Assembly (NCBI GenBank): GCA_964460615.1
Contig: CAYWPX010000009.1
Span: forward strand, 19,509 to 83,508
Origin: an uncultured Planctomycetia bacterium
GTDB taxonomy: Bacteria > Omnitrophota > Gorgyraeia > CAYWPX01
Reading direction: 5' to 3'
Length of the DNA stretch: 64,000 nucleotides
The translations under genes were made by a program, and so were the position numbers. Under the pieces are notes generated by a model. That model searched no databases, had not been told where the DNA came from, and saw only the letters and a program-made list of their open reading frames with translations. Shown piece by piece: positions 6,910-24,566 of the stretch. How positions within the stretch are numbered: position 1 is the stretch's first letter; every line of letters starts with the position of its first letter.

Positions 6910-7278
6910 TTATCCGATAAATTTTTTTATTTTAGCTATCAGGTCTTCTGCTTTAAACGGTTTTATCACACAATCGTCCGCGCACATATTCTTAGATTTT
7001 TCGGAAAGCATAAGACTGGAAATATTTGCAGTAAAAAAAATTATCGGTATGGGTTTAAACTTAACGTTACTCTTTAGTATTTTACAAAGCTCTTCACCTT
7101 GCATCCCCGGAAGCCGCAAATCCAATAATATCAGATCAGGCGGGGTTTTTTCTATCAAAGCCAATCCGTCTTCAGCAGTACCTGCCGATATGACTTTGTA
7201 ACCTAATCTTTCCAATCTTACGGTCACAATGATGCACATGTCCGGTTCATCGTCTATAATAAGAATATTTTTCGCCAT
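6910..7278 (-). CDS. single-domain response regulator (REC only)
   Basis: Start taken at MAKNILIIDDEPD (ATG rc 7276-7278) directly after the HK stop. DD...D(LILLD)...T...KPF receiver motifs. The longer ORF-track version overlaps the kinase. Confidence 0.8.
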   Translation of the reverse strand: MAKNILIIDDEPDMCIIVTVRLERLGYKVISAGTAEDGLALIEKTPPDLILLDLRLPGMQGEELCKILKSNVKFKPIPIIFFTANISSLMLSEKSKNMCADDCVIKPFKAEDLIAKIKKFIG

Positions 7279-7279
7279 T

Positions 7280-8725
7280 TTAAGTCCCACTTTTTTTAAT
7301 AGGTAAAGTAAAACTAAAACATGCGCCCTTTTCAAACTCGGATTCAGCCCAGATTTTGCCCTTATGCTTTTCAATGATATCCTTGCAAATAGCAAGCCCC
7401 AGACCAGTACCTCCGGACCTCTTATTGAGCTGAATAAATCTATCAAAAAGCTTAGGCATATCCTCTTTCTTTATCCCGAGACCGGTATCTTTGACGCTAA
7501 CCTTGATAAAACCATTATATAGCGATGTGCTGACTTCTATACTTCCGGATTCGGTAAATTTAAGCGAATTGTCTATCAGATTAACAAGAACCTGGGCGAC
7601 TTTGTCATGGTCAAATACTATCTTAGGCAAATTTTTATCGAGTTTAATCACAAAATCCAAATTTTTTTTCTTCACAAGCGATCCCATCATTTCATATATT
7701 TCACTGATAACATCATTTATATCGTTAATTTTCATCCTGAATTCCATTCTTCCTGACTCAAGCTTCTGAAAATCCAGAACTGCATTTACAAGCCTGGCAA
7801 GCCTGTCCATATTTCTATTGGCCAGACTAAGTAAATTCTTCTGCTCCTCATTTATCTCCCCGGTAACTTCATCAAAAACAATATCAATACCTGCCCTAAT
7901 AGCGGTCAGAGGTGTACGAAGTTCGTGAGAAACCATATCAATAAAATCGGCTTTTATCTTAATTGCCTTCTGCAATTCTTCATTTACCTTAGCCAGGTGT
8001 TCCTGATAACTTTTTAATTTCGCTTCTGTCTTTTTACGTTCTTCGATCTCTATCTGCAATTTCCTTAACGCTACTGCCATATCAGCCCGGGTGGCTTCGT
8101 CGCTTGAAAGAAGATTGTTGATCTCGTTTTCTATCGAACGCTTTGAAGGTTTTATGACAAATTCATCATAAGCATTCCCTTTTGAAACAAATTTCGTCTG
8201 AACTGCCCAGCAATTTGTTTTGAATAATAATGAGAAGTACCCTGCCATTTTCCCGGCCAGCATTCCGCTTCCCCATGAGACCCCTAATGCTTTTTGAAAT
8301 TCTCCCTCCCAGGAGTTCCTTATAGAGACAACTGCTGTTTTCTTTATTTTATCAAGTTTTTTAAGTTTCCAAGCGCCCCATCCGGCAACAGCGGCAATAT
8401 TAGCAATGGCTTTAAAGCCTTCCCTAAAATCCTTGTATTGTGAAATTACCTCCCAGTCATCCTTGCAGCTTGCTCGCCCCTGGCTCTGTTGGGCCAGGAA
8501 AAATCTCTTAGTCCCTACCATGGACTGAACTCCTGACATCAGGCCGGCAAGCGAAGAACCTATCCACATCATAATAACCGGTAGATCTTCAAAAGTCGTT
8601 GTGCCCTCTTTAACATTCCACCTAATATTAACATCTGAAACAATAGCCTTATTAATGCCGGTATTTTTGACTTTATATTTATCCAGACTTGGTTTTATAA
8701 TTTTAGAATATTTATTTGCTGCCAT
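7280..8725 (-). CDS. sensor histidine kinase (HisKA + HATPase_c) with ~220-aa N-terminal domain of unknown family, no obvious TM helices
   Basis: H-box SHELRTPLTAI; N, G1 (DTGLGI) and G2 (GGTGLGL) boxes; coiled-coil linker. Confidence 0.85.
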   Translation of the reverse strand: MAANKYSKIIKPSLDKYKVKNTGINKAIVSDVNIRWNVKEGTTTFEDLPVIMMWIGSSLAGLMSGVQSMVGTKRFFLAQQSQGRASCKDDWEVISQYKDFREGFKAIANIAAVAGWGAWKLKKLDKIKKTAVVSIRNSWEGEFQKALGVSWGSGMLAGKMAGYFSLLFKTNCWAVQTKFVSKGNAYDEFVIKPSKRSIENEINNLLSSDEATRADMAVALRKLQIEIEERKKTEAKLKSYQEHLAKVNEELQKAIKIKADFIDMVSHELRTPLTAIRAGIDIVFDEVTGEINEEQKNLLSLANRNMDRLARLVNAVLDFQKLESGRMEFRMKINDINDVISEIYEMMGSLVKKKNLDFVIKLDKNLPKIVFDHDKVAQVLVNLIDNSLKFTESGSIEVSTSLYNGFIKVSVKDTGLGIKKEDMPKLFDRFIQLNKRSGGTGLGLAICKDIIEKHKGKIWAESEFEKGACFSFTLPIKKSGT

Positions 8726-9300: not shown

Positions 9301-9390
9301 TGGCGGAGAGGGAGAGATTCGAACTCTCGGTACCTTGCGGTACACGCGCTCTCCAAGCGCGCGCCATAAACCGGACTAGGCGACCTCTCC
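9301..9390 (-). tRNA. tRNA-Ser (anticodon GGA), long variable arm, encoded CCA
   Basis: rc reads GGAGAGGTCGCCTAGTCCGGTTTATGGCGCGCGCTTGGAGAGCGCGTGTACCGCAAGGTACCGAGAGTTCGAATCTCTCCCTCTCCGCCA. Anticodon stem CGCGC/GCGCG, loop TTGGAGA. Confidence 0.75.
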
Positions 9391-9858
9391 TAGAAAATTG
9401 TGAAGCAATTTTCACTCTGAATTTTGACGAGAAAAATATCGAAGAAATTTTTCCGTCGTTATAAATTCAGAGTAATTCATAAAATTTCGTTGCATCTCGC
9501 CAAATTTTTGCTCTGGCGCAAAAATAATTAAATTTCATTCGTTATGGCGGCGCCGCTTGCTCCCTGCTCGGCTTGTTAAACTCAAAAGTCTTTTATCAAA
9601 TGAAATCCCGCGTTAGCGGGGTCTCCTCGCCACGGTCGCCAGCGGCATCTCGCCAAATTTTTGCTCTGGCGCAAAAATTTGGCGGAAGGTGAAGGATTCG
9701 AACCCTCGAAGGGATTACTCCCTTAACGGTTTTCAAGACCGCCGCATTCAACCGCTCTGCCAACCTTCCTAGAAATTGTGAAACAATTTCACTCTGAATT
9801 TTGACAAGAAAAATATCGAAGAGATTTTTCTGTCGGTTTAAATTCAGAGTTACCTTAT
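9391..9858. repeat. Tandemly duplicated tRNA-Ser unit: ~90-bp upstream segment with 11-bp inverted repeats (actctgaattt...aaattcagagt) + tRNA + downstream 13-bp-stem palindrome gccaaatttttgc-tctggc-gcaaaaatttggc
   Basis: 9391-9480 ~ 9770-9858 (~85% identity). gcatctcgccaaatttttgctctggcgcaaaaat occurs at 9493-9527 and 9648-9682. A degenerate version lies at 9270-9300. Confidence 0.8.
9680..9769 (-). tRNA. tRNA-Ser (anticodon TGA), encoded CCA
   Basis: rc reads GGAAGGTTGGCAGAGCGGTTGAATGCGGCGGTCTTGAAAACCGTTAAGGGAGTAATCCCTTCGAGGGTTCGAATCCTTCACCTTCCGCCA. Closely resembles canonical bacterial tRNA-Ser(UGA). Confidence 0.85.
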
Positions 9859-10738: not shown

Positions 10739-12022
10739 TTAAGGCGTTATCTTTTCCTTGCCGTCAAAATACTTCCGAAGCGCTTCCGGGATAGCAATAG
10801 ATCCGTCGATCTGTTGGTAATTTTCCATTATCGCTATCACCAGCCTCGCTAACGCCACTCCGGAAGCATTGAGCGTATGGACATATTCGGTTTTAGGTTT
10901 ACGGTTTTCGGTTTTGGATCTGAATCTAATATTAGCGCGCCTTGCCTGAAAATCTTCAAAGTTTGAACAACTCGAAACTTCCAAATTCATCTGGCTCCCT
11001 GGAGCCCATAACTCCAAGTCATAACATTTCGCAGCTGAAAACCCTATCCCTTGGGTGGAAAGGAGCACCACCCTATACGGAAGATTTAATAACTGTAAAA
11101 CTTTCTCAGCATTTTGTAATAGTTTCTCATGTTCATCATAAGACGTTTCGGGCTTTACAAATTTCACAAGCTCAATCTTATCAAACTGATGAACTCTCGT
11201 CATTCCTCTTGTCTCTTTACCGTAAGAACCGGCTTCTCTTCTGAAGCAGGCCGAATAGGCAGTATAGTAAATGGGTAGCTTTTCTTCATCGAGTATCTCA
11301 TCCCTAAAAATATTTGTTATGGGTACTTCGGCGGTAGGGATCAAAAATAAGTCGTCATATTTAAGGGTATACATATCTTCTTCAAATTTTGGCAGTTGGC
11401 CTGTACCTATCATACTGTTTCTATTTACCAAAAATGGAGGGAAAATTTCCGTATAACCATGCTCAGTTGTATGCAGATCAAGCATGAAGTTAATTAGCGC
11501 CCTTTCCAGCCTTGCTCCCATCCCTTTAAAAAGAATAAAGCTTGATGCAGTTATTTTGGTCGCTCTGGGAAAGTCAATAATATCCAATAACTCAGCTAGC
11601 TCCGTATGCGTCCTAGGCTTAAAGTCAAACTCCCTATGTTTTCCCCATTCCTTAACTACTTTGTTTGCTTCATGTTCTGAACCAATTGGCACAGATGAAT
11701 GCGGAATATTTGGGATAGTATATACAATATTAGCAATATTTTGGTCTAATTCCCCCACTCTTTTATCTAAAATCTCAATATTTTGGGATATCATTTTTAG
11801 ACCTTCTATCTTATCCTTAGCGTTGACCTTTTGAGCCATTAAACGGCCTATCTCTTCACTGGCCTTATTCTTTTGGCTCTTAAGGCTCTCGACCTCGGTT
11901 ACAATTTTACGCCTCTCTGAATCTAAGGATAAAAGCTCATCCAGATCCATTGTATAGTTTCTATTCTTAAGCGCCTCTTTTACTTTATCCGGATTTTCCC
12001 TAATAAATTTTATGTCTAACAT
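10739..12022 (-). CDS. serS: seryl-tRNA synthetase
   Basis: 427 aa. N-terminal coiled-coil arm, class II motifs 2 and 3 (FRRE..., GSGLA-like), full-length SerRS similarity. Confidence 0.95.
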   Translation of the reverse strand: MLDIKFIRENPDKVKEALKNRNYTMDLDELLSLDSERRKIVTEVESLKSQKNKASEEIGRLMAQKVNAKDKIEGLKMISQNIEILDKRVGELDQNIANIVYTIPNIPHSSVPIGSEHEANKVVKEWGKHREFDFKPRTHTELAELLDIIDFPRATKITASSFILFKGMGARLERALINFMLDLHTTEHGYTEIFPPFLVNRNSMIGTGQLPKFEEDMYTLKYDDLFLIPTAEVPITNIFRDEILDEEKLPIYYTAYSACFRREAGSYGKETRGMTRVHQFDKIELVKFVKPETSYDEHEKLLQNAEKVLQLLNLPYRVVLLSTQGIGFSAAKCYDLELWAPGSQMNLEVSSCSNFEDFQARRANIRFRSKTENRKPKTEYVHTLNASGVALARLVIAIMENYQQIDGSIAIPEALRKYFDGKEKITP

Positions 12023-12162: not shown

Positions 12163-13626
12163 TCAACCCTTTATAACTCCTATTGGTCGCATCTTGCAGA
12201 CTCTTTTTGCGAGACCCGCCTCATGGACTACATTAACAACATCATTTACATCTTTATATGCTTCAGGCGCTTCTTCTAGTAATGTTTCTCTGCCTGTAGA
12301 TTTGACTATTATACCTTTATTTTCCAATTCGCGCGAGAGATTTCTTCCTTTTAGACTTCTGATCGCAGCACCCCTCGAAAGCATCCGTCCGGCACCATGA
12401 CAAGTAGAACCAAAGGTTTCATCTTCAGCCTTTTTTGTTCCGACTAATAAATACGAATTTCTACCCATATCTCCCGGTATTATAACCGGTTGGCCTATGG
12501 TTTTGTATTTAAGGGGAATATCAGGATGATTTGGCCCAAAGGACCTCGTCGCACCTTTTCTATGAACACATAATAATTTTTCTTTACCATTTATATTATA
12601 TTTTTCTAATTTAGCAATATTATGAGCAACATCATAAATAAGGTCCATACCAAGATCTCTGGAAGATTTTTTGAAAACTTTTTCAAATACATTTCGCGCT
12701 ATATGCATAAGGCACTGCCTATTGGCCCAGGCATAATTAGCTGCGCATCTCATAGCTCCCAGATATTTCTTTCCTTCCGGTGAATTCACCGGAACTGAGG
12801 CAAGCTGCCTATCGGGAACTTGAATATTGTACTTAGATAGTAAATGGATCATATCTTTAGCATATTCATCGCATATCTGATACCCCAACCCCCTTGAGCC
12901 TGAGTGGATCATTAGAACAACACTTCCGACTTCAATACCAAACACCTTGGCTGCAATTTTATCGAAAATTTCATCAACTACCTGCACTTCCATAAAATGG
13001 TTTCCCGAACCAAGAGTCCCTGACTGGTTCTTTCCTCTTTCGTAGGCTCTATCTGAAACTGCGGACGGATCCGCCCCTTCAATAAATCCGCCCGATTCGG
13101 TATATTCTATATCTTCTTTCCTTCCATAGCCTTTTTTCTCTATAACCCACCTTGAACCCTTTAAAAGAAGCTCCCTTTCTTCGAGCGCAGAGATCCTTAC
13201 ATCTCCTTTAGATCCAACGCCTGCAGGTACGTCGTTAAAAAGCGCATACACCAGATCCTTTAGAACCGGCCTGATATCATCTTCAAACAAATTTGTCCTA
13301 ACTAACCTTACCCCACAATTTATATCATAGCCCACTCCGCCGGGCGAAACTACTCCGCCGTTTTCTATATCTGTTGCAGCGACGCCTCCTATAGGAAAAC
13401 CATACCCCCAATGAATATCAGGCATAGCCAAAGAAGCGTTTACTATTCCGGGCAAAGTGGCTACATTTGCAACCTGCTCCATAGCCTTATCTTTAAAGAT
13501 ATCCTTGAGCATTCCTTCACTTGAATAGATAATACCCGGTACCCGCATGCCTTCTTTATAAGATTTTGGTATACGCCATCTGTAGTCGTCAATCTTTTCT
13601 ATGGGTATGTTTATTGTATCTGGCAT
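12163..13626 (-). CDS. rtcB: RNA-splicing ligase RtcB (3'-phosphate/5'-OH RNA ligase)
   Basis: 487 aa. GGVGYDINCGVR, HSGSRGLG, HNIA and CVHRKGATR motifs. Confidence 0.95.
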   Translation of the reverse strand: MPDTINIPIEKIDDYRWRIPKSYKEGMRVPGIIYSSEGMLKDIFKDKAMEQVANVATLPGIVNASLAMPDIHWGYGFPIGGVAATDIENGGVVSPGGVGYDINCGVRLVRTNLFEDDIRPVLKDLVYALFNDVPAGVGSKGDVRISALEERELLLKGSRWVIEKKGYGRKEDIEYTESGGFIEGADPSAVSDRAYERGKNQSGTLGSGNHFMEVQVVDEIFDKIAAKVFGIEVGSVVLMIHSGSRGLGYQICDEYAKDMIHLLSKYNIQVPDRQLASVPVNSPEGKKYLGAMRCAANYAWANRQCLMHIARNVFEKVFKKSSRDLGMDLIYDVAHNIAKLEKYNINGKEKLLCVHRKGATRSFGPNHPDIPLKYKTIGQPVIIPGDMGRNSYLLVGTKKAEDETFGSTCHGAGRMLSRGAAIRSLKGRNLSRELENKGIIVKSTGRETLLEEAPEAYKDVNDVVNVVHEAGLAKRVCKMRPIGVIKG

Positions 13627-13727
13627 TTTTAAATTCCTTTAGCTATAAGGCAATTAGATAATTGAGTGATTGGTTTAATTTTTTACCTAATCGCATTATA
13701 ACCTAATCACTATTTTTTATATACGAG

Positions 13728-14144
13728 CTACACATCAAAAATAATCTCTGCGCTATACATATCACCGGCCTTTGTTATCTTAAAATCGTGATATGTCACG
13801 CCCTTGACTTCGGCTTTAAGCACATGCCTTCTCTTATCAAAATCGTCACCAACAATTTCGGCAACGATCTCGCAATCAGCCAGTTTTTTTATTTTAATTT
13901 TTTTAATAAGAAATTCTCTGGAGGTATAAAAATAAAGGAGCTCGCTTAAAAAATTTATAAGCAGCTCCTCCAAGTTCGGGGCCTTGATAGAAACTTCTTT
14001 TTTCAAGGCCCCTTTAATTTTTTTTGTATCACTAAGAACATCAAATAAAGCTAAAGCCGAATTAGTAAAAAGCGTTTTAAGGGTTTTCCCATGCGCTCTT
14101 ACGCCTATGTCTGCAGTATGATCAAAATACTCAAAGCGCTTCAT
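13728..14144 (-). CDS. archease (RtcB activator)
   Basis: 138 aa. Signature FEYFDHTADIGVRAHG at the N-terminus; located immediately upstream of rtcB. Confidence 0.85.
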   Translation of the reverse strand: MKRFEYFDHTADIGVRAHGKTLKTLFTNSALALFDVLSDTKKIKGALKKEVSIKAPNLEELLINFLSELLYFYTSREFLIKKIKIKKLADCEIVAEIVGDDFDKRRHVLKAEVKGVTYHDFKITKAGDMYSAEIIFDV

Positions 14145-15244: not shown

Positions 15245-16567
15245 TTATTTAGCCAATTTCGCTTCATCAAGCTCAGACATAAGGTACTTAACCTTTGCCA
15301 CTAAAATATAATAATCCTTGGTAAATTTAAGCAGATTGAACTGAGATCTCATATAGTTAAAATTTGAATCAATAATATCGCTCTGATCAACATCGCCTCT
15401 TTGATAAAGTGTAAATGACATATTAAGCGCCTCGTCTGCATCGCTAAACACAGAGCGCTGGCTTGATAATAATTTCTTTGTCTTCTCCAGATTTGCCGTG
15501 GCTTCTTCAAGGTCAAGTCGGATCTCATCCTTTATAAATCTTTCTACGGTCTCTAAGCGCGAATATTCGGACCTTAGCTGTGAAATTTGGGATGAATTAT
15601 CAAACCCGTCAAACAACGGAAGCTTAAAGTTGAGCACCAAAGACCAGTTATACTCATATGACCCGCCTAGATTAAATTTATTTGAGCTTTCGTAAAATGT
15701 GCTTTTCAAGCTTGCTTGGGGAGCATAACGCGAATACGCGGCATTAAGGGCCTGCTTACCGATCTTACTGGAGAGCTCCGCGACTTTTACGGTTAAATTG
15801 GTATTATAAACTTTATTGGACAGATCTTTTATATCATAATTGGTCATATTCTTCTCTTCGGGACAAACCAACTCCCCGATCACTGAAATTGTTTCGGGGC
15901 CGGGGATCATAAGTAATTTTTTTAATCTAGTTTCAAGGGTCTTTTTCTCCTTTTCAAAATTCAGAGAATCGGATTCAAGATTTTCGACCTCGATCTTTGA
16001 TCTCAGGATCTCGTATTTATGTACCTCCCCGGTCTTACTCATCCCCATAAGGTTGGAAGAGTAGCCTTCCATCCTGTTAATTGCCCTGGCGTTTAATTCC
16101 TCGAGTTTTTCATTCAAAAGAAGCTCATAATAAGTATTGATTATATCGTATATGATCTTGTTGCGCTTCTCATAATAAGCCTGCAGCTCTTTTTCAAGTG
16201 AGAGTCGGGCTTTTAAATAGTTGTAATAACTTTCTCCGCCTTTAAAAAGGTCCTGATTGATCTGGATATTCCCAACACTAGGCGCCTGCAAGAATGTCTC
16301 ATCCGCGACTCTCCCGGCCCCCGGAGAATCAGCCGAAATATAATTATAATTAGCATATATTTTCGGTAAAAATGCCGAAAAATTCTGTAATAGGTAGGCC
16401 CTGGCTTTTTTTACGTTTTCTTTGGCGATCTTAAGATCGGTATTTCTCGATAGCCCGGTTTCAATACATGCTTTCAGATTTAAGGGCTCTTTAAACTCCT
16501 CACCGGATACGGAATTAATTTTTAGAACGAATATAAAAACAACAAAAAATAAAAGGATTTTTTTCAT
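15245..16567 (-). CDS. TolC-like outer membrane efflux/channel protein (OEP family)
   Basis: 440 aa. Signal peptide, two tandem OEP-type repeats with coiled-coil and beta signatures. Confidence 0.6.
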   Translation of the reverse strand: MKKILLFFVVFIFVLKINSVSGEEFKEPLNLKACIETGLSRNTDLKIAKENVKKARAYLLQNFSAFLPKIYANYNYISADSPGAGRVADETFLQAPSVGNIQINQDLFKGGESYYNYLKARLSLEKELQAYYEKRNKIIYDIINTYYELLLNEKLEELNARAINRMEGYSSNLMGMSKTGEVHKYEILRSKIEVENLESDSLNFEKEKKTLETRLKKLLMIPGPETISVIGELVCPEEKNMTNYDIKDLSNKVYNTNLTVKVAELSSKIGKQALNAAYSRYAPQASLKSTFYESSNKFNLGGSYEYNWSLVLNFKLPLFDGFDNSSQISQLRSEYSRLETVERFIKDEIRLDLEEATANLEKTKKLLSSQRSVFSDADEALNMSFTLYQRGDVDQSDIIDSNFNYMRSQFNLLKFTKDYYILVAKVKYLMSELDEAKLAK

Positions 16568-16571
16568 ATTT

Positions 16572-17876
16572 TTATCTATACTCCGGCCTGTTGTCCCAAA
16601 CTTTTTTGGGCAAATAATTACTTCTCAAAAATGACATTCTAAAAAATTCAAGAAGATACGCAAACATACTGACCGCCCTCAAAAATAAGCTGTAGAAAAA
16701 AAAGATCGGGGAATATAATACAAACACCCAGTCCCTGCCCGGATCATCCGAAAGAAGAGCCACAATAGTAAATTGGATAAAATTCATAATAGTATAATAC
16801 AACAGCGTTACTATAACTATAAAAGGAAAAATCTGGGGAAAAAATATTGCTATCAAAATAAAATACAAAGGAAAAATGAATAAAAGCACAAGATTAAAAA
16901 AAAGATCCAAAACGCCTGCGATAAAATCACCTATTTTAAACGAATGAAAATCAAGAAGATTTCTGTGTTTTCTTAAATTTATACTCACATAACATCTGTC
17001 CCAACGTATCCTCTGCTTGGCCAGTCTAATCCACGTATCAGGGACTTCTGTCAACGCTATGGCCTTGGGCGCAAACGCAACTTTAAACCCGAGCTTTCTT
17101 GTCTTTATTGTTAAATCAAGGTCCTCGCCTGTCTCCGGGTCAGCCCCTTTCAGGTCAGTCATTACTTCGCGCCTATAGCTCGAAAAAGCACCTGAGGCGA
17201 TCTGAAGCAAATCCGTAAAAGCAAGCCATCTTCTCGAAATACTAATACACATGCCGTACTCAGCGGCCTGAAGGCGCGTAACAAGATTCTCTTTGTCATT
17301 ATACACCTTCAAATTGCCGCTTACTACACCAACCCTCTTATCTCTAAACGGCTTCACGGCTTCGGATATCGCATTACGATGTACCAGAGTATCGCCGTCA
17401 AAACCCATGATAATTTCTCCTTTAGAGAAATTTAAACCATAATTTATAGCTGAGGGCTTTCCCCCTCTTTCGGTTTTACGGAAAAATTTTATCAATCCCT
17501 TAGACTCAAAATTTCTGCAAATTTCGGGAGTATTATCTTCGGATTTATCATCAACAACAATTATTTCAAAGTTCGGGTAGTCATTCTCTAAAAAAGAATT
17601 TATGGTATTCTTTAGCCTTATACCTTCATTGTAAACGGGCAAAATAACACTCACAAAAGGCTTGTATTCTAACGAGCTCTCTTCATCCTTCTTTTCGCTT
17701 CCGAAAATCTCCAAAAAAAGAATTATTGAATTTCCGATATAATAACGCGTGGTATCAAATAATAGCGCCGGTCCAAAAAGAAAGACTATCTCGAATGGAG
17801 AGCGCGACATAACATTATCTATAGAAAATGCTATGTATTCACCGACCAAATTTATAAAATCAAAAATTATATGCAT
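16572..17876 (-). CDS. processive family-2 glycosyltransferase (PgaC/cellulose/hyaluronan-synthase-like), membrane-embedded
   Basis: 434 aa. VILPVYNEG, VVDDKSED, DGDT and the processive-synthase QRIRW motif. One N-terminal and ~4 C-terminal TM helices. Confidence 0.85.
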   Translation of the reverse strand: MHIIFDFINLVGEYIAFSIDNVMSRSPFEIVFLFGPALLFDTTRYYIGNSIILFLEIFGSEKKDEESSLEYKPFVSVILPVYNEGIRLKNTINSFLENDYPNFEIIVVDDKSEDNTPEICRNFESKGLIKFFRKTERGGKPSAINYGLNFSKGEIIMGFDGDTLVHRNAISEAVKPFRDKRVGVVSGNLKVYNDKENLVTRLQAAEYGMCISISRRWLAFTDLLQIASGAFSSYRREVMTDLKGADPETGEDLDLTIKTRKLGFKVAFAPKAIALTEVPDTWIRLAKQRIRWDRCYVSINLRKHRNLLDFHSFKIGDFIAGVLDLFFNLVLLFIFPLYFILIAIFFPQIFPFIVIVTLLYYTIMNFIQFTIVALLSDDPGRDWVFVLYSPIFFFYSLFLRAVSMFAYLLEFFRMSFLRSNYLPKKVWDNRPEYR

Positions 17877-18595
17877 TATTTAAATATTTTACAGTGGACC
17901 GACATGCCAAACTTAAAATATTTATTAAAATCATCTGATGCATCAAGCGGGAATATCCTGACTTTAAAAACTTTCTCCGGTAAATAATAGTACCTTGAAA
18001 ACATTTTGGGCATTTGATCTATCTCGGCATAAACAAACTCTATCTTACCCTTAATTTTTTTGTCTTTAATGCTCGACCAGACCTCGGCCTCCTGCCCCAC
18101 TCTCACGTTATTGATAAAGCGAGCAGGAACAAATGCATCTATCCAATACCGTTTGGGTTTTGTAACACTATAAATCACATCTCCTTTGTTAACTATATCC
18201 CCAACGGATTTATTTTTTTTGACTATCACCATTTCATAGCTTGCCCTTATGTCTTTGGATAATCCTCCGGCTTCGTCAGAAGCTTTGATGAGAGCAATCG
18301 TACTCCCCTCTTCAACCCTTGCGCCTGTTTCAGCATAAAGCTGGCTTATCTTTCCGTCTATAGGGGAAGTAATGCTAGATAGATCCATATTCTCCATTTC
18401 TAGCTGCATTGGACCCATTACTACACCATTAACAAATAAAGTATCCAATGTCAAAAACCTCCAAACAACAAATGGTGTAGCTAAAAATATTATAAAGAAT
18501 ACAAACTTGACTATTTTCGGCAGACCCTTCTTAGGGCTTTGACGTTCGGCTTGAGCCTTATTTACAGTAAACGCCTCTATCTTTCTTAGTCTCAT
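17876..18595 (-). CDS. HlyD-like periplasmic adaptor / membrane-fusion protein (short form)
   Basis: 239 aa. N-terminal TM anchor, biotin-lipoyl-like SPIDGKISQLYAETGARVEEG and a beta-barrel domain. 1-nt overlap with the GT2 gene. Confidence 0.55.
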   Translation of the reverse strand: MRLRKIEAFTVNKAQAERQSPKKGLPKIVKFVFFIIFLATPFVVWRFLTLDTLFVNGVVMGPMQLEMENMDLSSITSPIDGKISQLYAETGARVEEGSTIALIKASDEAGGLSKDIRASYEMVIVKKNKSVGDIVNKGDVIYSVTKPKRYWIDAFVPARFINNVRVGQEAEVWSSIKDKKIKGKIEFVYAEIDQMPKMFSRYYYLPEKVFKVRIFPLDASDDFNKYFKFGMSVHCKIFK

Positions 18596-20049
18596 ATAGT
18601 TTTCCCTGACATATTAATTAGTTTATTTAATAGCTCTTCATCAGTTCTGCCATCCTCAGGGTAAGAAACTGACGATACTTTAACGTTAATATGCTCCCTA
18701 CTGGTATACTCATTAAGCTTTTTATTTATAAAACGTTCCAGCTCCAGGGCCTTAGATTTATCGGCCTCCGGAAGAAGAGTAATTAAAGCGCTCTTGTCGT
18801 AACGGGCGTGTATGTTTATTTTCCAGAGATTCTCCTTTAGAAGGGTCGCTATGTCATTAAGCATCCTCCTGGCTCCACTAAAACCGGCCTTTTTGGTCAA
18901 TTCATCAAAATTGAGGACATTCACCATAACAATGGAAAAATGCTCTTTGAATTTTTCAGCACGGTCTAACTCCTCATCAAGTCTTTTCTTAAAATACCGG
19001 TTACTATATACCTCAACATCAGTATCAAGCAGTATCTGGTCCATGTTCAAATCTATAAATCTCCCCGACTCTACAACACCAGCCGCATCTTCGGTAATAG
19101 GATATTTAAATATATCCTGCCTCATAGCATTATCGATCTCAAATATTTTTTTGCAATTCCTGCATTGAGCGCTTACATCCGGTTCGGTGAACTTTTCTCC
19201 GTTATCATTACATACGAAACTTTGCCCCGGCTTATCATAATCCACCCCTATCTGCTTTAATTCATGCTCGCATTTTGGGCAGATGTACTGCGTCCCCTTT
19301 TTAAATTCTTCTTCAATGCCGGTATAGCCGCACCTGAAATGGTGGATCATTTCAACTATTGATATATTTGCGCTATGGGTAGTCGGACACGTCTCTCTGA
19401 TATTTATATCGTGATGCATGCAATATGGGCATAGAAGGACCCTGTCAAAAAATCTTTTTTCAAAACACCCTTTATTAACCAAAAATTCGATATGATCTAT
19501 TTCGCTTCCGTCATTGACTTTAAAAAAATTTGCGGCAATTGGATAGCCATAACCGCTCAGGGAATTCATATTATATTCCGGGATCAATTCCTTAATGTTA
19601 TTATCCAGCATACTTTTCAGGAAATCCACTCTCAACTTGTCTTCTTTGGATATGACCGGAGGTTGAGTGGTTTTTTTAGCCCTCCTCAAAACAACTTCTA
19701 TCCTGGCTATAAGCTCCTGGGCATCATAGGGTTTGGTTATGTAATCATCTATACCGAATTTAAAAAATTTTACCTTATCTTCCATACCGGATCTCGCGGT
19801 AAGGGCAATGGCAGGAATAGCTGATTTTTTGGCATCGGCATGCAACTTCTGAAGGACTTCAAATCCATCCATCCCGGGCATCATAATATCAAGGAGTATC
19901 AAATCCGGAGTATTGGTATCCGTATAGAGCAGAGCTTCTTTGCCGCTTAAAACACTATGAACATTGAACCCCGCGTTTTCCAATCTCATAGTTAAAAGCC
20001 GGCTAACATCCGGTTCATCATCTACAATAAGAATATTCCCTTTTGCCAT
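18592..20049 (-). CDS. response regulator: REC + Cys-rich (zinc-ribbon-like) middle domain + degenerate GGDEF domain
   Basis: 485 aa. REC motifs (VDDE, LILLDIMMPGMDG, ALTA, KPY). CPYC..C..C..CPKC..C..CRNC cluster. C-terminal GGDEF fold with RYDKSAL replacing RYGGDEF and no RxxD I-site. Confidence 0.75.
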   Translation of the reverse strand: MAKGNILIVDDEPDVSRLLTMRLENAGFNVHSVLSGKEALLYTDTNTPDLILLDIMMPGMDGFEVLQKLHADAKKSAIPAIALTARSGMEDKVKFFKFGIDDYITKPYDAQELIARIEVVLRRAKKTTQPPVISKEDKLRVDFLKSMLDNNIKELIPEYNMNSLSGYGYPIAANFFKVNDGSEIDHIEFLVNKGCFEKRFFDRVLLCPYCMHHDINIRETCPTTHSANISIVEMIHHFRCGYTGIEEEFKKGTQYICPKCEHELKQIGVDYDKPGQSFVCNDNGEKFTEPDVSAQCRNCKKIFEIDNAMRQDIFKYPITEDAAGVVESGRFIDLNMDQILLDTDVEVYSNRYFKKRLDEELDRAEKFKEHFSIVMVNVLNFDELTKKAGFSGARRMLNDIATLLKENLWKINIHARYDKSALITLLPEADKSKALELERFINKKLNEYTSREHINVKVSSVSYPEDGRTDEELLNKLINMSGKTI

Positions 20050-20070: not shown

Positions 20071-21456
20071 CTATTGTTTTATATTTAATTCTTCCGGATG
20101 GTTTGTATAATATTTTTTCATTTTAATCAAAATATCATCCATTGAAGTGGAAGGTATAAAATTTAAAATTCTTTCAAGCTTCCTCAGATCAGGAATGCGC
20201 TTTCTTATATCCTCAAAATTGGTCCCATAATATTTTTCGTAATCTTCAAATTTTATTTGCGAAGAACTTCCGGTAATATTTATTATACGCTGGGCAAGGT
20301 CACTTATGGTTATATTATTATTACTTCCGAGATTTATCAGCTGACCGTTTGCATCTTTGGAATTAGCAAGTCTTATGATTATCTCTACGGCGTCTTCAAC
20401 ATATGTAAAACACCTGGACTGTTTCCCGTCCCCGTAAATAACAAGCGGTTTATTATTAAAGGCGTTATAAAAGAATCTCGGTATAACCATTCCAAAATTC
20501 CCGACCTGACCCGGGCCTACTATATTAAAAAGCCTTACCACAACAACCGGGAGATTCCTTTCCTTATGATACGCTATCGTGAGAAATTCATCAAGTAATT
20601 TTGAACAAGCATAGCTCCACCTGTTAACATCAGGGGGCCCGATAACGACATCATTATCCTCTCTAAAAGGAAGCTGGTCGGATTTGCCGTAGACTTCGGA
20701 GGTTGAGGTGAGAAAAACCTTGATATGTTTTTGTGAAGCATATTTCAGGACTAACTCAGTCCCGTAAGTATCATTTATTATGGTATCAAGAGGCCTGTCG
20801 ACAACATTTTTAACTCCTACCGTAGCCGCTAAGTGATATATCATATCGACTTTATCTATCAGTTTACTTATAAGCGCTTCATCAGTAACAGATCCTCTCG
20901 TTAAATTAAAATTTTTTAAACCTGCCATATCCTCAATATTTTTTTCTCTGCCCGTAGAAAAATCATCTAATACATAGACGTTATATTTCATTTTTACAAG
21001 CACCCTTGCCAAATGCGAGCCTATAAAACCGGCCCCACCGGTAACAAGAATATTATTAATGGTATTTTTGGCGGCATCCTTTGACCTTCGTAAGACTGCA
21101 TTAACTCTGCTTATGAATTCCTCTGCCTCAAATGGCTTTGTTATATAATCATCCGCTCCCAGATCAAGGCATTTAACCATGTTTGACGACGATTGATCCG
21201 CCGTAAGCATTATAACCGGGATAAAAGCGGTTTTTCTATCAGAGCGGATCTTTGCCAATAGAGTATACCCGTCCATATCAGGCATCTCGATATCCATAAT
21301 GATAATATCGGGGATCTCTTTTTTTAAATATTCCAGGGCATCAATCCCGCTTGCGACTGCGGAAGCAATAAAGCCGGATTTATTTAAGCGCGGCAGAAGC
21401 ACCTTGCCGACTTCCCTTTCATCATCGATTATTAATACTTTTGGTACTGGCGACAT
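20071..21456 (-). CDS. REC domain fused to NAD-dependent sugar-nucleotide epimerase/dehydratase (extended SDR, UDP-glucuronate decarboxylase/UXS-like)
   Basis: 461 aa. N-terminal REC (IDDE, IIIMDIEMPDMDG, MLTA, KPF), then VTGGAGFIGSH Rossmann, catalytic SxS...YACSK (YxxxK). Confidence 0.85.
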   Translation of the reverse strand: MSPVPKVLIIDDEREVGKVLLPRLNKSGFIASAVASGIDALEYLKKEIPDIIIMDIEMPDMDGYTLLAKIRSDRKTAFIPVIMLTADQSSSNMVKCLDLGADDYITKPFEAEEFISRVNAVLRRSKDAAKNTINNILVTGGAGFIGSHLARVLVKMKYNVYVLDDFSTGREKNIEDMAGLKNFNLTRGSVTDEALISKLIDKVDMIYHLAATVGVKNVVDRPLDTIINDTYGTELVLKYASQKHIKVFLTSTSEVYGKSDQLPFREDNDVVIGPPDVNRWSYACSKLLDEFLTIAYHKERNLPVVVVRLFNIVGPGQVGNFGMVIPRFFYNAFNNKPLVIYGDGKQSRCFTYVEDAVEIIIRLANSKDANGQLINLGSNNNITISDLAQRIINITGSSSQIKFEDYEKYYGTNFEDIRKRIPDLRKLERILNFIPSTSMDDILIKMKKYYTNHPEELNIKQ

Positions 21457-21461
21457 ACGTC

Positions 21462-22802
21462 CTATCTCCTATTCTTTCTATCCAGGATGATCCTTCTGAT
21501 TTCAGCCCTGATCTTATCCGGATCGTGACGGACTACTTCTGTTTCATTTGCTATATCGGCTATAACAATACGAGCTTTAGTAATTTTTTTGATTTCGTTG
21601 ATATCATTAATAAAGACGGGGAATTGATTTTTTTTGGAATATTTTTTTACTGAACTCTTGGATAATTTATTTGTATCGTTTATTAATATATAATCCAAGC
21701 TATCCGATTTAAGATATTTTATAATTTCGCTGATATGATTAGCCGCATCAAACCCGTAAGTTTCACCCGGTTTTGTCATAAGATTGCATATATACACCTT
21801 AACTGCGGGCGAATCTATTATAGCATCTCTTATGGCTTTAACTAATAAATTTGTTATAATACTGGTAAACAGATCTCCCGGGCCGATTGTAACCATATCA
21901 GAATTAATGATCGACGAACAAGCGCCTGTATCGGCTTTCGAAGGAGGCTCGTGCCAGCAATCGATGATCTTCAGGGATTTGTCCCGCCCAACCCCAAGAT
22001 CAATATTGCTTTCGCCTTTAATAACTTTACCATTTTCAAATTTTGCACATAAGGTAGGATTTGTTATTGTGGCAGGATTTACTATCCCTTTAATATTAAG
22101 TATGTCGCCCATGGCCCTGACCGCTTCAGGCATCGAGCCGGTAATATCGGATAAGGCAGTGATAAGCAAATTACCTAAGCTATGACCGCTAAGGCCCGGG
22201 GCCTTTTTAAATCTGTACTGCATTACTTTATCCATTAGATCCGGAGTGGTGGATAGAGCGACCAGATTCCTTCTTATGTCTCCCGCCGGGATCCCGCCAA
22301 AAGCCGCCTTAAGCCTTCCCGACGAACCGCCATCATCACTGGTGCTTACTATGGAGGTCAAAAATACATCATCGAGTTCCTTTAACCCCATTAAGAGATT
22401 AAATAATCCCGTCCCTCCCCCAATAGATGAGACCCTGTACTTTTTTTCAAATACTGCTTTGACTTTTAATAGGATCTCCCTGTGGTTAAAAGGCTTGGAC
22501 AAAAAGTCCTTGGAGCCGTATTTTTGAAAATCAAAGACATCCTCCAGGCTTTCGGAGAGAGAAGAAATAAAAAAAGGGATTTTAGAAACTTCAACAATAT
22601 TAAGGTTTTTTTGGAATAATACAGGATTGCTTTTGTAGGAATCTTTATCAAATACTATAATGTCCGGCGAGAAATCGATCAATGCAGATTTCAAAGTTTC
22701 GAAATCAAATACTCTTTTAACCTCTAAAACAAGTTTTGATAGAAAAGGCTTGATATCTTCTACAAACTTATCGTTTCCAATCAATAAAAATCTTTTATTC
22801 AT
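21462..22802 (-). CDS. REC-like receiver domain fused to YvcK/CofD-like (UPF0052) domain
   Basis: 446 aa. N-terminal ~125 aa with receiver pattern (LIGND, IIVFDKD, FFISS, SKPF), then IGGGTGLFNLL, DDGGSSGRL and PAGDIRRNLVALS motifs of the YvcK family. Confidence 0.75.
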   Translation of the reverse strand: MNKRFLLIGNDKFVEDIKPFLSKLVLEVKRVFDFETLKSALIDFSPDIIVFDKDSYKSNPVLFQKNLNIVEVSKIPFFISSLSESLEDVFDFQKYGSKDFLSKPFNHREILLKVKAVFEKKYRVSSIGGGTGLFNLLMGLKELDDVFLTSIVSTSDDGGSSGRLKAAFGGIPAGDIRRNLVALSTTPDLMDKVMQYRFKKAPGLSGHSLGNLLITALSDITGSMPEAVRAMGDILNIKGIVNPATITNPTLCAKFENGKVIKGESNIDLGVGRDKSLKIIDCWHEPPSKADTGACSSIINSDMVTIGPGDLFTSIITNLLVKAIRDAIIDSPAVKVYICNLMTKPGETYGFDAANHISEIIKYLKSDSLDYILINDTNKLSKSSVKKYSKKNQFPVFINDINEIKKITKARIVIADIANETEVVRHDPDKIRAEIRRIILDRKNRR

Positions 22803-22900: not shown

Positions 22901-23079
22901 ACAATTATATCATAGGGCATTGATATTTCAATATAAATATAAATGGCCAATAATGACACAAGCTGTAGCTATTTCAATGCATTCAAATGACCCATTTCGG
23001 TCTAAAAACAAAAAAATATGGCAAAGATGCATAGAAGCAAACAAATACTTTTCTTCCAAAATCTTTGCCATTAAAGCTC

Positions 23080-23411: not shown

Positions 23412-23965
23412 AAAATTAAGAAATTTTAGCAACAATCGCATGGACAAAAAATAAACCTCTTATTTTTTTAAGAGGTTTTAATTGAATTTTGCCCCTCGTT
23501 TTGCCTAAATTGCTTCTTCTCGACGCAATTTACGGCAACTCGGGATTGGTGAGCCGCCCGTGACTCTCCCGACGCAATCCTTTGGATAGGTCGGGATTCC
23601 GACTTACCTGTTTTATGGGTAACGTCGGAAGAACACGGCGTATCTACCAATGAATAAAATTGAAAGACTGAGAGGGTATATGTCCATGCGCTTAAAATAG
23701 TACTAAAATTCCTTAATTTTCAAGAACACAAAATTAAGAAATTTTAGTATTAATCGCATGGACAAAAAATAAACCTCTTATTTTTTTAAGAGGTTTTAAT
23801 TGAATTTTGCCCCTCGTTTTGCCTAAATTGCTTCTTCTCGACGCAATTTACGGCAACTCGGGATTGGTGAGCCGCCCGTGACTCTCCCGACGCAATCCTT
23901 TGGATAGGTCGGGATTCCGACTTACCTGTTTTATGGGTAACGTCGGAAGAACACGGTGTATTTGG
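23412..23965. repeat. Two ~232-bp direct repeats (23412-23643 and 23731-23960, period ~319 bp). Each contains a bidirectional terminator hairpin and the 3'-terminal 20 nt of tRNA-Lys(TTT).
   Basis: Near-identical blocks. tggtgagccgcccgtgactc at 23548-23566 and 23865-23884 equals the tRNA 3' end at 24143-24162. ORFs 23468-23650 and 23786-24001 lie inside the repeats and are likely spurious. Confidence 0.85.
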
Positions 23966-24142: not shown

Positions 24143-24218
24143 TGGTGAGCCGCCCGTGACTCGAACACGGCACAACCACATTAAAAGTGTGGTGCTCTAC
24201 CTGATGAGCTAGCGGCCC
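24143..24218 (-). tRNA. tRNA-Lys (anticodon TTT), encoded CCA
   Basis: rc reads GGGCCGCTAGCTCATCAGGTAGAGCACCACACTTTTAATGTGGTTGTGCCGTGTTCGAGTCACGGGCGGCTCACCA. Anticodon loop CTTTTAA. Confidence 0.85.
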
Positions 24219-24566
24219 ACGTTAAACTTAAATCTAAATTTCAATACTAGGCAATCTGACTGATGTCGCTTTGTTGATGTCCCAAAAAACTTAAGTTTTT
24301 TGGGATGAATTAGCTCTTGATCCTTAAAAACTCGTTTTTCTGCCTGCTGCCTTAGGGCAGTCAGGCAGTAATCATGATCTAATTCTACGGCCCACGTTAA
24401 ACTTAAATCTAAATTTCAATACTAGGCAATCTGACTGATGTCGCTTTGTTGATGTCCCAAAAAACTTAAGTTTTTTGGGATGAATTAGCTCTTGATCCTT
24501 AAAAACTCGTTTTTCTGCCTGCTGCCTTAGGGCAGTCAGGCAGTAATCATGATCTAATTCTACGGC
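24216..24566. repeat. Tandem 175-bp repeat x2 (+ partial third) between frr and tRNA-Lys(TTT). Each unit carries a perfect 24-bp palindrome cccaaaaaacttaagttttttggg and an imperfect GC hairpin ctgcctgctgcc-ttag-ggcagtcaggcag.
   Basis: Units 24216-24390 and 24391-24565 are near-identical; the unit boundary includes the first nt of the tRNA 5' end (cggccc). Confidence 0.85.

Follow-up and report, generated by a model that had tools for sequence, protein, structure and literature searches.

A receiver domain fused to a decarboxylase-like nucleotide-sugar enzyme in a putative exopolysaccharide operon of Omnitrophota

Could a response-regulator receiver be wired directly to an enzyme that modifies nucleotide sugars? 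This question is raised by a gene on the minus strand (20071..21456) of a 64,000-nucleotide stretch of DNA, hereafter the window (contig CAYWPX010000009.1, positions 19,509 to 83,508, GenBank assembly GCA_964460615.1), from an uncultured bacterium assigned by GTDB to Omnitrophota. In the encoded protein, termed here REC-SDR, a receiver (REC) domain is followed by an extended short-chain dehydrogenase/reductase (SDR) domain of the nucleotide-sugar oxidoreductase/decarboxylase type. The fusion had been claimed in a reading of the window made from its letters alone (the sequence-only reading), and we found it to be real, complete and conserved, with two domains that both look functional. Its domain architecture, residue conservation, family distribution, synteny and phylogenetic placement were observed. 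The explanation that we favour, and hold to be moderately probable, is that REC-SDR is a response regulator with a nucleotide-sugar enzyme as its output, and that its phosphorylation would gate the delivery of a modified UDP-sugar to an exopolysaccharide system of the synthase-dependent kind.

The gene is one unbroken open reading frame (ORF) from ATG to stop, encoding 461 amino acids. Pfam placed Response_reg (PF00072) on residues 7-118 (E 2.4e-29, 102 bits against a cutoff of 30.2) and Epimerase/GDP_Man_Dehyd on residues 135-446 (best E ~1e-54, 187 bits against a cutoff of 27), PF01370 (175 bits) and PF16363 (186.6 bits) both being matched along their full profile length. An AlphaFold2 (AF2) model built from 32 family members (mean pLDDT 84.6, pTM 0.72) divides the protein into a receiver (residues 6-125; 21082..21441, minus strand), a linker and a Rossmann-type SDR with a C-terminal substrate domain (residues 135-457; 20086..21054, minus strand). 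The linker of nine residues (126-134; 21055..21081, minus strand) runs from REC helix alpha5 to SDR strand beta1 and coincides with a pLDDT dip to ~67. All the motifs quoted in the sequence-only reading were found, namely D11-D12 (IIDDE), D55 (IIIMDIEMPDMDG), T85 (MLTA), K107-P108-F109, GGAGFIGSH and Y282xxxK286.

REC and SDR genes that are separate yet adjacent occur in three related loci (L016, L018 and L027), and might suggest that the fusion is an artefact of assembly, frameshift or gene calling that joined two neighbouring genes. Against this stand the continuous reading frame and the identical protein encoded both in the NCBI record and on an independently assembled Logan contig (run SRR12487046), on which a CofD/YvcK gene again precedes the REC-SDR gene. 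Furthermore, at least 82 full-length homologues were obtained from many samples and assemblers with the linker length conserved, the stretch between residues 124 and 136 being 10-12 amino acids long in 71 of 82. The artefact hypothesis was therefore rejected as having a negligible chance of being right, and we regard the fusion as virtually certain.

A search of 5.8 billion proteins returned ~85 clusters of 456-478 amino acids with the same REC+SDR architecture and 55-62% identity, whose named members are nearly all metagenome-assembled genomes of Candidatus Omnitrophota. In an exhaustive HMMER search of 1.84 billion representatives at 50% identity, a single representative (P0053) had the fused architecture, the other top matches being stand-alone SDRs or other fusions. 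Taken with the homologues and the independent assembly, this shows that the REC-SDR fusion is a single narrow family, small and uncharacterised, in Omnitrophota, and not an artefact. Scanning one genome per species recovered ~18 fused loci. In existing databases these proteins are labelled only 'GDP-mannose 4,6-dehydratase' or 'UDP-glucose 4-epimerase'. Mean identity to the window protein over the 82 homologues is 46.5% for REC versus 63.6% for SDR; the receiver is thus the less conserved part, yet its functional residues are fixed.

In the AF2 model the receiver folds as five alternating strand-helix units ((beta-alpha)5; residues 6-125, pLDDT 84-95), and its best NCBIfam REC matches are RpaB and PhoB. 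We checked the codon positions, all on the minus strand, of the acidic pair D11/D12 (21421-21426), the phospho-acceptor D55 (21292-21294), T85 (21202-21204), the switch residue Y104 (21145-21147) and K107 (21136-21138), which is followed by P108. All 82 homologues carry D55, K107, P108, D103, E113 and R117, with Thr or Ser at position 85, Asp or Glu at position 11 and an aromatic residue or His at position 104; D12 is present in 78. The sequence of beta5-alpha5, GADDYITKPFEAEEFISRVNAVLRR, is close to that of PhoB, and we take a methionine together with D103, E113 and R117 to be the counterparts of the PhoB interface residues R91, D101, E111 and R115. The last three of these positions are invariant in the family, and the R91 equivalent is Lys or Arg in 79 of 82 homologues. 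Judged by these features, the receiver appears to be of the OmpR/PhoB lineage and is very probably phosphorylatable. A contrast is provided by the protein of the neighbouring gene, whose pseudo-receiver, fused to a YvcK/CofD-family domain, has lost the acidic pair, whereas REC-SDR has kept its phosphorylation residues. This difference indicates that selection maintains the phosphorylation chemistry specifically in REC-SDR and in a second receiver protein of the same operon, REC-TackOD1 (both neighbours are described below).

The catalytic residues of the SDR domain are equally well preserved. T252-S253-E254 (20695-20703), Y282 (20611-20613), K286 (20599-20601) and R348 (20413-20415), whose codons were checked on the minus strand, are invariant in the 82 homologues together with G140, G143 and G146 (G140xxG143xxG146), D164 and N311. 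The sequence-only reading had made its case depend on the phospho-acceptor Asp and the catalytic Tyr/Lys, and all three hold in the alignment without exception. Among solved structures, the top sequence match is human UXS1, a UDP-xylose synthase (UXS; 174.6 bits, E 2.5e-50), closely followed by Pal, 8vr2 and Mth375 and at a greater distance by UAXS, UDP-glucuronic acid (UDP-GlcA) 4-epimerase, PelX, ArnA, RmlB and GalE. Foldseek retrieved the same set of structures, headed by 8vr2 (titled oxidoreductase/decarboxylase), with Pal and UXS1. T252-S253-E254 and R348 align with the STSE and QTR motifs of UXS1, which are common to the whole decarboxylase supergroup and are not diagnostic for UXS. We take the T-S-E triad, Y282/K286 and R348 to be equivalent to the catalytic residues of UXS1 and ArnA, reportedly described by Eixelsberger in 2012 and by Gatzeva-Topalova in 2005.

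These matches raise the possibility that the enzyme is a canonical UXS converting UDP-GlcA to UDP-xylose, in which case the polymer would contain xylose and phosphorylation would control the provision of that sugar. UXS1 is indeed the best solved-structure match, and the T-S-E/Y/K/R catalytic set and a DxFxTG motif are held in common. However, annotated plasmid records pointed elsewhere, as proteins named 'UDP-glucuronic acid decarboxylase family' by the Prokaryotic Genome Annotation Pipeline (PGAP) are only 34-36% identical to the window SDR, versus 41-45% for unnamed epimerase/dehydratase proteins of Bacillus cereus, Streptomyces and Haloplanus, and in all three of the latter records the SDR gene abuts a 'nucleotide sugar dehydrogenase'. 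A characterised pair of this kind exists in Bacillus cytotoxicus: UGlcNAcDH, the 6-dehydrogenase of UDP-N-acetylglucosamine (UDP-GlcNAc), and UXNAcS, which converts UDP-N-acetylglucosaminuronic acid (UDP-GlcNAcA) to UDP-N-acetylxylosamine (UDP-XylNAc) (PMC5078965). We took both sequences from Additional file 1 of that paper; each stored sequence has a 1-nt loss, which was bridged by joining two frames. With UXNAcS the window SDR shares 41.8% identity (235 bits), versus 36.5% with UXS1 (181 bits), and the B. cereus plasmid pair corresponds to the characterised one (85% for the SDR to UXNAcS, 72% for the dehydrogenase to UGlcNAcDH). UXNAcS itself likewise has UXS1 as its best PDB match, so that a top match to UXS1 does not discriminate between these enzyme types.

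Phylogeny led to the same placement. In a bootstrapped neighbour-joining tree of 76 SDR domains, the Omnitrophota proteins, fused and unfused interleaved, form one clade (bootstrap 100), which is joined first by unfused relatives from other phyla and the Streptomyces and Haloplanus SDRs (bootstrap 91) and then by Bacillus UXNAcS (bootstrap 66). The canonical UXS set, comprising the human enzyme and three PGAP-named bacterial ones, forms a separate clade that excludes the family (bootstrap 100). The family and UXNAcS share HLAAxxGVK where UXS enzymes have LA(S/C)PASP, RWSYAxxK in place of CYDEGK and (M/G)VIPRF in place of RVVSNF, and both possess SEVYGK and a 6-residue insertion before the C-terminal RxPD that are not found in UXS. 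Dehydrogenase genes lie beside the SDR genes of Bacillus, Streptomyces, Haloplanus, L002/L005, L024 and L078, those of L002/L005 and L024 being neighbours of members of the family itself; the first four were scored and match models for UDP-N-acetylhexosamine (UDP-HexNAc) dehydrogenases better than UDP-glucose ones (195-272 bits on UDP-ManNAc/UDP-GlcNAc dehydrogenase models, 171-203 for Haloplanus, versus 108-185 on UDP-glucose models). The L002 dehydrogenase, which stands beside a fused protein, is 44% identical to UGlcNAcDH, and its closest homologues, the top ones mostly from Nitrospirota, are annotated as UDP-N-acetyl-D-glucosamine 6-dehydrogenase/WbpA. The tree, the motifs and the identity of the partner genes led us to reject a canonical UXS assignment, to which we leave only a small probability. 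The earlier description of the enzyme as UXS-like stands at the superfamily level, where UXS1 is the best structure, and fails below it, since the protein falls outside the canonical UXS clade and is closer to UXNAcS. As a separate observation, a plasmid of Bacteroides finegoldii (NZ_OY725969.1, 2992-5077; L087) carries a canonical UXS-family gene followed by a 'hybrid sensor histidine kinase/response regulator', which may be a coincidence or a further link between two-component systems and UDP-sugar decarboxylases.

Alternatively, the SDR could be a 4-epimerase or a 4,6-/5,6-dehydratase acting on UDP-GlcNAc or UDP-GlcNAcA (PelX-, TviC-, Pal- or LegB-like), which would provide the synthase with UDP-GalNAc(A) or a deoxy-HexNAc. 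Among NCBIfam models a LegB-like 4,6-dehydratase scores best (153 bits), Pal (6bwl), PelX (6wj9) and Mth375 are near neighbours in structure and sequence, PelX provides a precedent for an SDR dedicated to a synthase-dependent exopolysaccharide, pairs of dehydrogenase and 4-epimerase genes are known (PMC12407052), and the window lacks a dehydrogenase gene. Conversely, all NCBIfam models of this kind score far below their cutoffs, members of the clade score lower on the TviC model than on decarboxylase models, the nearest sequence of known activity belongs to a decarboxylase, and E254 and R348, which decarboxylase chemistry requires and GalE-type epimerases lack, are invariant. We consider an epimerase or dehydratase unlikely. 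The SDR is most probably an active UDP-hexuronate 4-oxidase/decarboxylase, and its function as a UDP-uronate decarboxylase appears fairly likely. Placement with UXNAcS, the dehydrogenase-adjacent SDRs and the shared derived motifs make UDP-GlcNAcA a likelier substrate than UDP-GlcA; that UDP-GlcNAcA is the specific substrate is for us a nearly even call, leaning slightly to the negative.

What would such an enzyme serve? REC-SDR is the second gene of a tight minus-strand operon of six genes, with successive gaps of 5, 21, -4, -1 and 4 nt. The best match to a sigma-70-like promoter, TTGAAA-16-TATAAT with an extended TG (22904..22931, minus strand; 11/12, a consensus match only), lies ~100 nt upstream of the first gene. 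The synthase that the sequence-only reading had placed downstream of the fusion gene is present two genes further on, at 16572..17876 (minus strand; PF00535, PF13641, PF13632) and encodes a membrane glycosyltransferase of family 2 (GT2) that resembles the processive synthases PgaC/IcaA/NodC, below family cutoffs (TIGR03937, 166 bits against 422). Among NCBIfam models it most resembles synthases of HexNAc polymers, and it is 56-57% identical to the GT2 proteins of L002, L016 and L018. It is preceded by an HlyD-like membrane-fusion (periplasmic adaptor) protein (17876..18595, minus strand; PF13437/PF16576), whose start overlaps the preceding stop by 4 nt, and followed by a TolC-like outer-membrane factor (OEP; 15245..16567, minus strand; PF02321 in two stretches). 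Both are conserved in L016 and L018, where the three genes keep the same order; in the window they overlap or lie 4 nt apart.

Of the 14 fused loci with enough flanking sequence, 13 have a GT2 gene nearby. Additionally, relatives in the SDR clade are fused directly to glycosyltransferases (P0174, P0162, P0224 and P0131, covering GT2-SDR, SDR-GT2 in two sizes and GT4-SDR; 41-45% identity), which independently links the enzyme to glycosyl transfer. Because of these GT2/GT4 fusions, the role in precursor supply for the GT2 synthase suggested in the sequence-only reading is reasonable, with the amendment that the sugar is more likely UDP-GlcNAcA than UDP-GlcA. Two other representatives of the SDR clade outside the window, P0121 and P0122, are tandem double-SDR proteins. 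The unfused relatives of other phyla (L028-L082) showed no conserved context against the reference set, except L078 and L041.

The remaining two genes of the operon also encode receiver-type fusions. The first (21462..22802, minus strand) ends 5 nt before the start of REC-SDR and joins a pseudo-REC to a YvcK/CofD-family domain (TIGR01826, 304.6 bits against a cutoff of 196; PF01933), a match above cutoff to a family of UDP-GlcNAc-binding proteins. We asked whether its N-terminal domain, which aligns to REC, is a third true receiver and rejected this, as the acidic pair is missing in 11 of 11 homologues examined and the beta3-alpha3 loop is shortened. The gene keeps its place beside that of the SDR in at least 13 loci, of which 10 have the fused SDR and 3 an unfused one. 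At positions 29-757 the window also encodes a YvcK paralogue that is not fused to a receiver (35% identity). Downstream of REC-SDR, the gene at 18592..20049 (minus strand) encodes a protein with Pfam REC, Cys-rich TackOD1 and degenerate GGDEF domains that is conserved in L002, L016 and L018. Its GGDEF motif has become RYDK(S/N) in 4 of 4 homologues and the RxxD I-site is not conserved, for which reasons we discarded an active diguanylate cyclase next door that would feed cyclic di-GMP (c-di-GMP) to the synthase; the protein is predicted to be unable to make this nucleotide. TackOD1, a Cys-rich domain of undescribed function, comes from surveys of archaeal response regulators only (PMC5847659). 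The protein is thus a bacterial occurrence, in a polysaccharide operon, of a domain regarded as 'thaumarchaeal'.

The module recurs in ~18 species-level genomes with GT2 synthases, kinases, single-domain REC proteins and YvcK-like genes. Its more common layout, with permutations, comprises a large kinase, REC, pseudo-REC-YvcK, REC-SDR, REC, a YaiO-type barrel, a HEAT-repeat membrane protein and GT2. In L001/L004, L006-L015 and L025 it contains a YaiO-type outer-membrane barrel, a ~427-residue HEAT-repeat protein with an N-terminal membrane segment and a GT2 of ~470 residues, and it is accompanied by a PilZ gene, by hybrid kinases of very great size (~1368 amino acids) and by as many as five genes for single-domain RECs. 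This YaiO/HEAT/GT2 context appears to be an undescribed synthase-dependent polysaccharide module. The layout of the window, with REC-TackOD1-GGDEF, HlyD, GT2 and OEP, is also found in L016, L018 and partly in L002.

The only kinase in the window (7280-8725, minus strand; HisKA + HATPase_c) is followed by a single-domain REC (6925-7278, minus strand). Both have orthologues in L016, L018 and L008: the core of the kinase shares 53-54% identity with the kinases at the head of the clusters there, and the single-domain REC shares 45-48% with the receiver encoded after them. We regard kinase and REC together as the best candidate cognate phosphodonor for REC-SDR, presumably relocated in this genome.

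From these observations we infer phosphorylation, the identity of the kinase, the substrate and product, the direction of regulation and the identity of the polymer as follows. D55 of the OmpR/PhoB-type receiver would be phosphorylated, likely by the HisKA kinase at 7280-8725, and the receiver would control the activity or oligomeric state of the SDR through the short, length-conserved linker. Most plausibly, two receivers would pair through their alpha4-beta5-alpha5 faces in the manner of PhoB or PleD; alternatively, phosphorylation would uncover an occluded active site, as it does in CheB. SDRs of the UXS type act as dimers. Because of this and of the short linker of conserved length, a change in SDR quaternary state through REC dimerisation is the most economical proposal, although we advance regulation by dimerisation only tentatively, as a possibility with less than an even chance. 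The SDR would act as an NAD+-dependent 4-oxidase/decarboxylase of a UDP-hexuronic acid, most likely converting UDP-GlcNAcA to UDP-XylNAc, or might release the 4-keto intermediate. Its product would be a donor or precursor for the co-operonic GT2 synthase, whose polymer would be exported via the HlyD-like adaptor and the TolC-like channel.

Several observations weigh against this explanation. The position equivalent to R91 of PhoB is Met in the window protein, not the Lys or Arg usual in the family. The AF2 output came without predicted aligned error or coordinates and gives no inter-domain confidence, which leaves the regulatory mechanism a conjecture. In the tree, fused and unfused SDR orthologues are intermingled, and REC control is therefore dispensable in some lineages. 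A separate REC gene directly precedes the unfused SDR gene in L016, L018 and L027; in the first two its product is only ~36% identical to the fused REC and may not be a true fission product, so that these loci were only partly upheld as a clean gene-fission counterpart, this REC carrying an insertion and its orthology being doubtful. The kinase/REC pair is displaced ~5.4 kb downstream of the operon and is not adjacent to it, with SPFH, archease-like, RtcB, SerRS (seryl-tRNA synthetase) and tRNA-Ser genes in between. On the enzymatic side, the T-S-E motif also occurs in GDP-mannose 4,6-dehydratase and other chemistry is possible. The NCBIfam scan reached no equivalog cutoff with the SDR domain, the decarboxylase models included (NF008872, 144 against 294; ArnA, 139 against 777). 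The node joining the family to UXNAcS has a bootstrap of only 66% at ~42% identity, which makes the transfer of substrate tentative. Finally, we found no nucleotide-sugar 6-dehydrogenase gene anywhere in the 64 kb of the window, nor within 10 kb of most Omnitrophota clusters.

The receiver might also be no catalytic switch at all, and serve as a constitutive dimerisation or scaffolding module, or as a phosphate sink, tethering the enzyme to an assembly of kinase, REC proteins and synthase. Unfused orthologues with 60-66% identity stand in the same clusters (L021 and L022), so that the enzyme would work without REC, and the many single-domain RECs, the pseudo-REC-YvcK protein and the degenerate GGDEF in these clusters suggest hubs of protein-protein signalling. 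This role is nevertheless highly improbable in view of the phosphorylation and T/Y switch residues, all conserved in 82 of 82 homologues, as opposed to the lost acidic pair of the YvcK pseudo-receiver. A bolder scheme, which we regard as doubtful, would have these Omnitrophota regulate an exopolysaccharide wholly post-translationally, at the precursor level. One kinase would phosphorylate the set of RECs; a REC-gated UDP-GlcNAcA decarboxylase would switch the donor pool between a hexosaminuronate and XylNAc, a rare pentosamine; UDP-GlcNAc would be sensed by pseudo-REC-YvcK; and the REC-TackOD1-degenerate-GGDEF protein would act as an adaptor on the synthase. A hitherto unknown surface polymer of these ultra-small bacteria, containing XylNAc, would then change in composition as well as in amount.

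Other elements of the window were recorded in passing. Between a tRNA-Lys gene and the operon promoter lie two 97%-identical copies of an element of ~190 nt (23450-23645 and 23768-23963, both minus strand). Its predicted RNA fold is very stable, with a minimum free energy of -76.8 versus -44.8 +/- 4.1 kcal/mol for shuffles (z = -7.9), its 3' end has a terminator-like hairpin and a U-run, and a 21-nt stretch in each copy exactly repeats the 3' T-arm/acceptor end of the tRNA-Lys(UUU) next to it. An Rfam scan of this upstream repeat region matched only the tRNA, and the core of the element is absent from all 90 loci compared; it is possibly a duplicated structured small RNA. Beside tRNA-Lys (24143-24218), a 175-nt unit is perfectly duplicated in tandem (24213-24562), with a third partial copy from 24563, and each unit carries the 26-nt palindrome TCCCAAAAAACTTAAGTTTTTTGGGA. 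On the other side of the operon, an RtcB RNA ligase gene (PF01139, E 9e-175) within 12163-14144 (minus strand) is preceded by an archease-like ORF of 138 amino acids (sequence motif only), and the seryl-tRNA synthetase gene (10739-12022) and two tRNA-Ser genes (9301-9390 and 9680-9769) lie near RtcB.

Two-component control of polysaccharide synthesis usually operates via transcription or c-di-GMP. A receiver wired to a nucleotide-sugar decarboxylase would, if confirmed, constitute a third route, allowing fast and reversible control of the available activated sugar, and REC-SDR would represent a new output class for response regulators. The precursor-level circuit, if true, would contain the first response regulator with a nucleotide-sugar-modifying enzyme as its output. 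The cells of Omnitrophota, a phylum that is largely uncultured, are very small and of undescribed surface chemistry, and the locus reveals in them a conserved, unannotated exopolysaccharide module with three REC-type fusion proteins and YaiO/HEAT or HlyD/TolC export. The current labels GDP-mannose 4,6-dehydratase and UDP-glucose 4-epimerase reflect neither the presence of a receiver nor the probable chemistry. As a single soluble protein of 461 amino acids, REC-SDR also offers a concrete handle on enzyme-level regulation of glycan precursors.

Among known systems, the closest characterised enzyme to the window SDR is UXNAcS of B. cytotoxicus NVH 391-98 (GenBank GU784843), reportedly characterised by Gu et al. 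in 2010 (JBC 285:24825) as a UDP-N-acetylxylosamine synthase. The two have in common the motifs GGAGFIGSH, STSEVYGK, RWSYAxxK, (M/G)VIPRF and GDGKQxRCFTYV and the insertion before RxPD, and both belong to polysaccharide clusters with GT2 enzymes. UXNAcS has no REC and is always paired with UGlcNAcDH in Bacillus, whereas the window is without a dehydrogenase gene. Human UXS1 (PDB 2b69/4gll) and the bacterial UDP-glucuronate decarboxylases have the same fold and the same Thr-Ser-Glu, Tyr-x3-Lys and Arg residues; the window protein differs from them by its position outside their clade (34-36.5% identity), by its replaced motifs and by the partner genes of its relatives, which point to a 2-acetamido substrate. 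PelX, the UDP-GlcNAc C4-epimerase of the Pel system (PDB 6wj9/6wjb), is a structural neighbour and, like the window SDR, an extended SDR accompanying a synthase-dependent exopolysaccharide, where it tailors UDP-HexNAc. It is an epimerase without the catalytic Glu/Arg pair and without REC, and its similarity is lower (123 bits).

The methylesterase CheB, the diguanylate cyclases PleD/WspR, the HD-GYP protein RpfG and PorX share with REC-SDR an N-terminal phosphorylatable REC that would act directly on a C-terminal enzyme in place of a DNA-binding domain; REC-SDR differs in that its output is a nucleotide-sugar SDR. The fusion of REC to standard metabolic enzymes has been explicitly recognised as a concept (PMC5847659), so that the earlier view of this control of a sugar enzyme as unusual is fair with the proviso that the general principle has precedents. 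We found no description of a REC-epimerase or other REC-nucleotide-sugar SDR response regulator in the searchable literature. Single-domain response regulators that activate exopolysaccharide enzymes by binding have recently been reported (PMC12802240).

The layout of the window operon, a membrane GT2 with an HlyD-type adaptor and a TolC-type factor, is the same as in the Thermosynechococcus cellulose synthase with its HlyD-like and TolC-like proteins (Maeda 2018, as cited in PMC8892547) and in the BgsA/BgsB/TolC system for mixed-linkage glucan of Sinorhizobium (PMC13438883), both of them experimental precedents. A parallel in principle to the REC-TackOD1-GGDEF protein is BcsE of cellulose systems, with its degenerate tandem of REC and GGDEF (PMC8892547). 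In the Thermosynechococcus and Sinorhizobium systems c-di-GMP activates the synthase by binding to it, whereas the window has no PilZ domain and its GGDEF is degenerate. Most of the Omnitrophota relatives have a YaiO-type barrel and a HEAT-repeat protein instead of HlyD and TolC, and control in the window appears to be exerted through three REC-type fusion proteins, the precursor enzyme among them.

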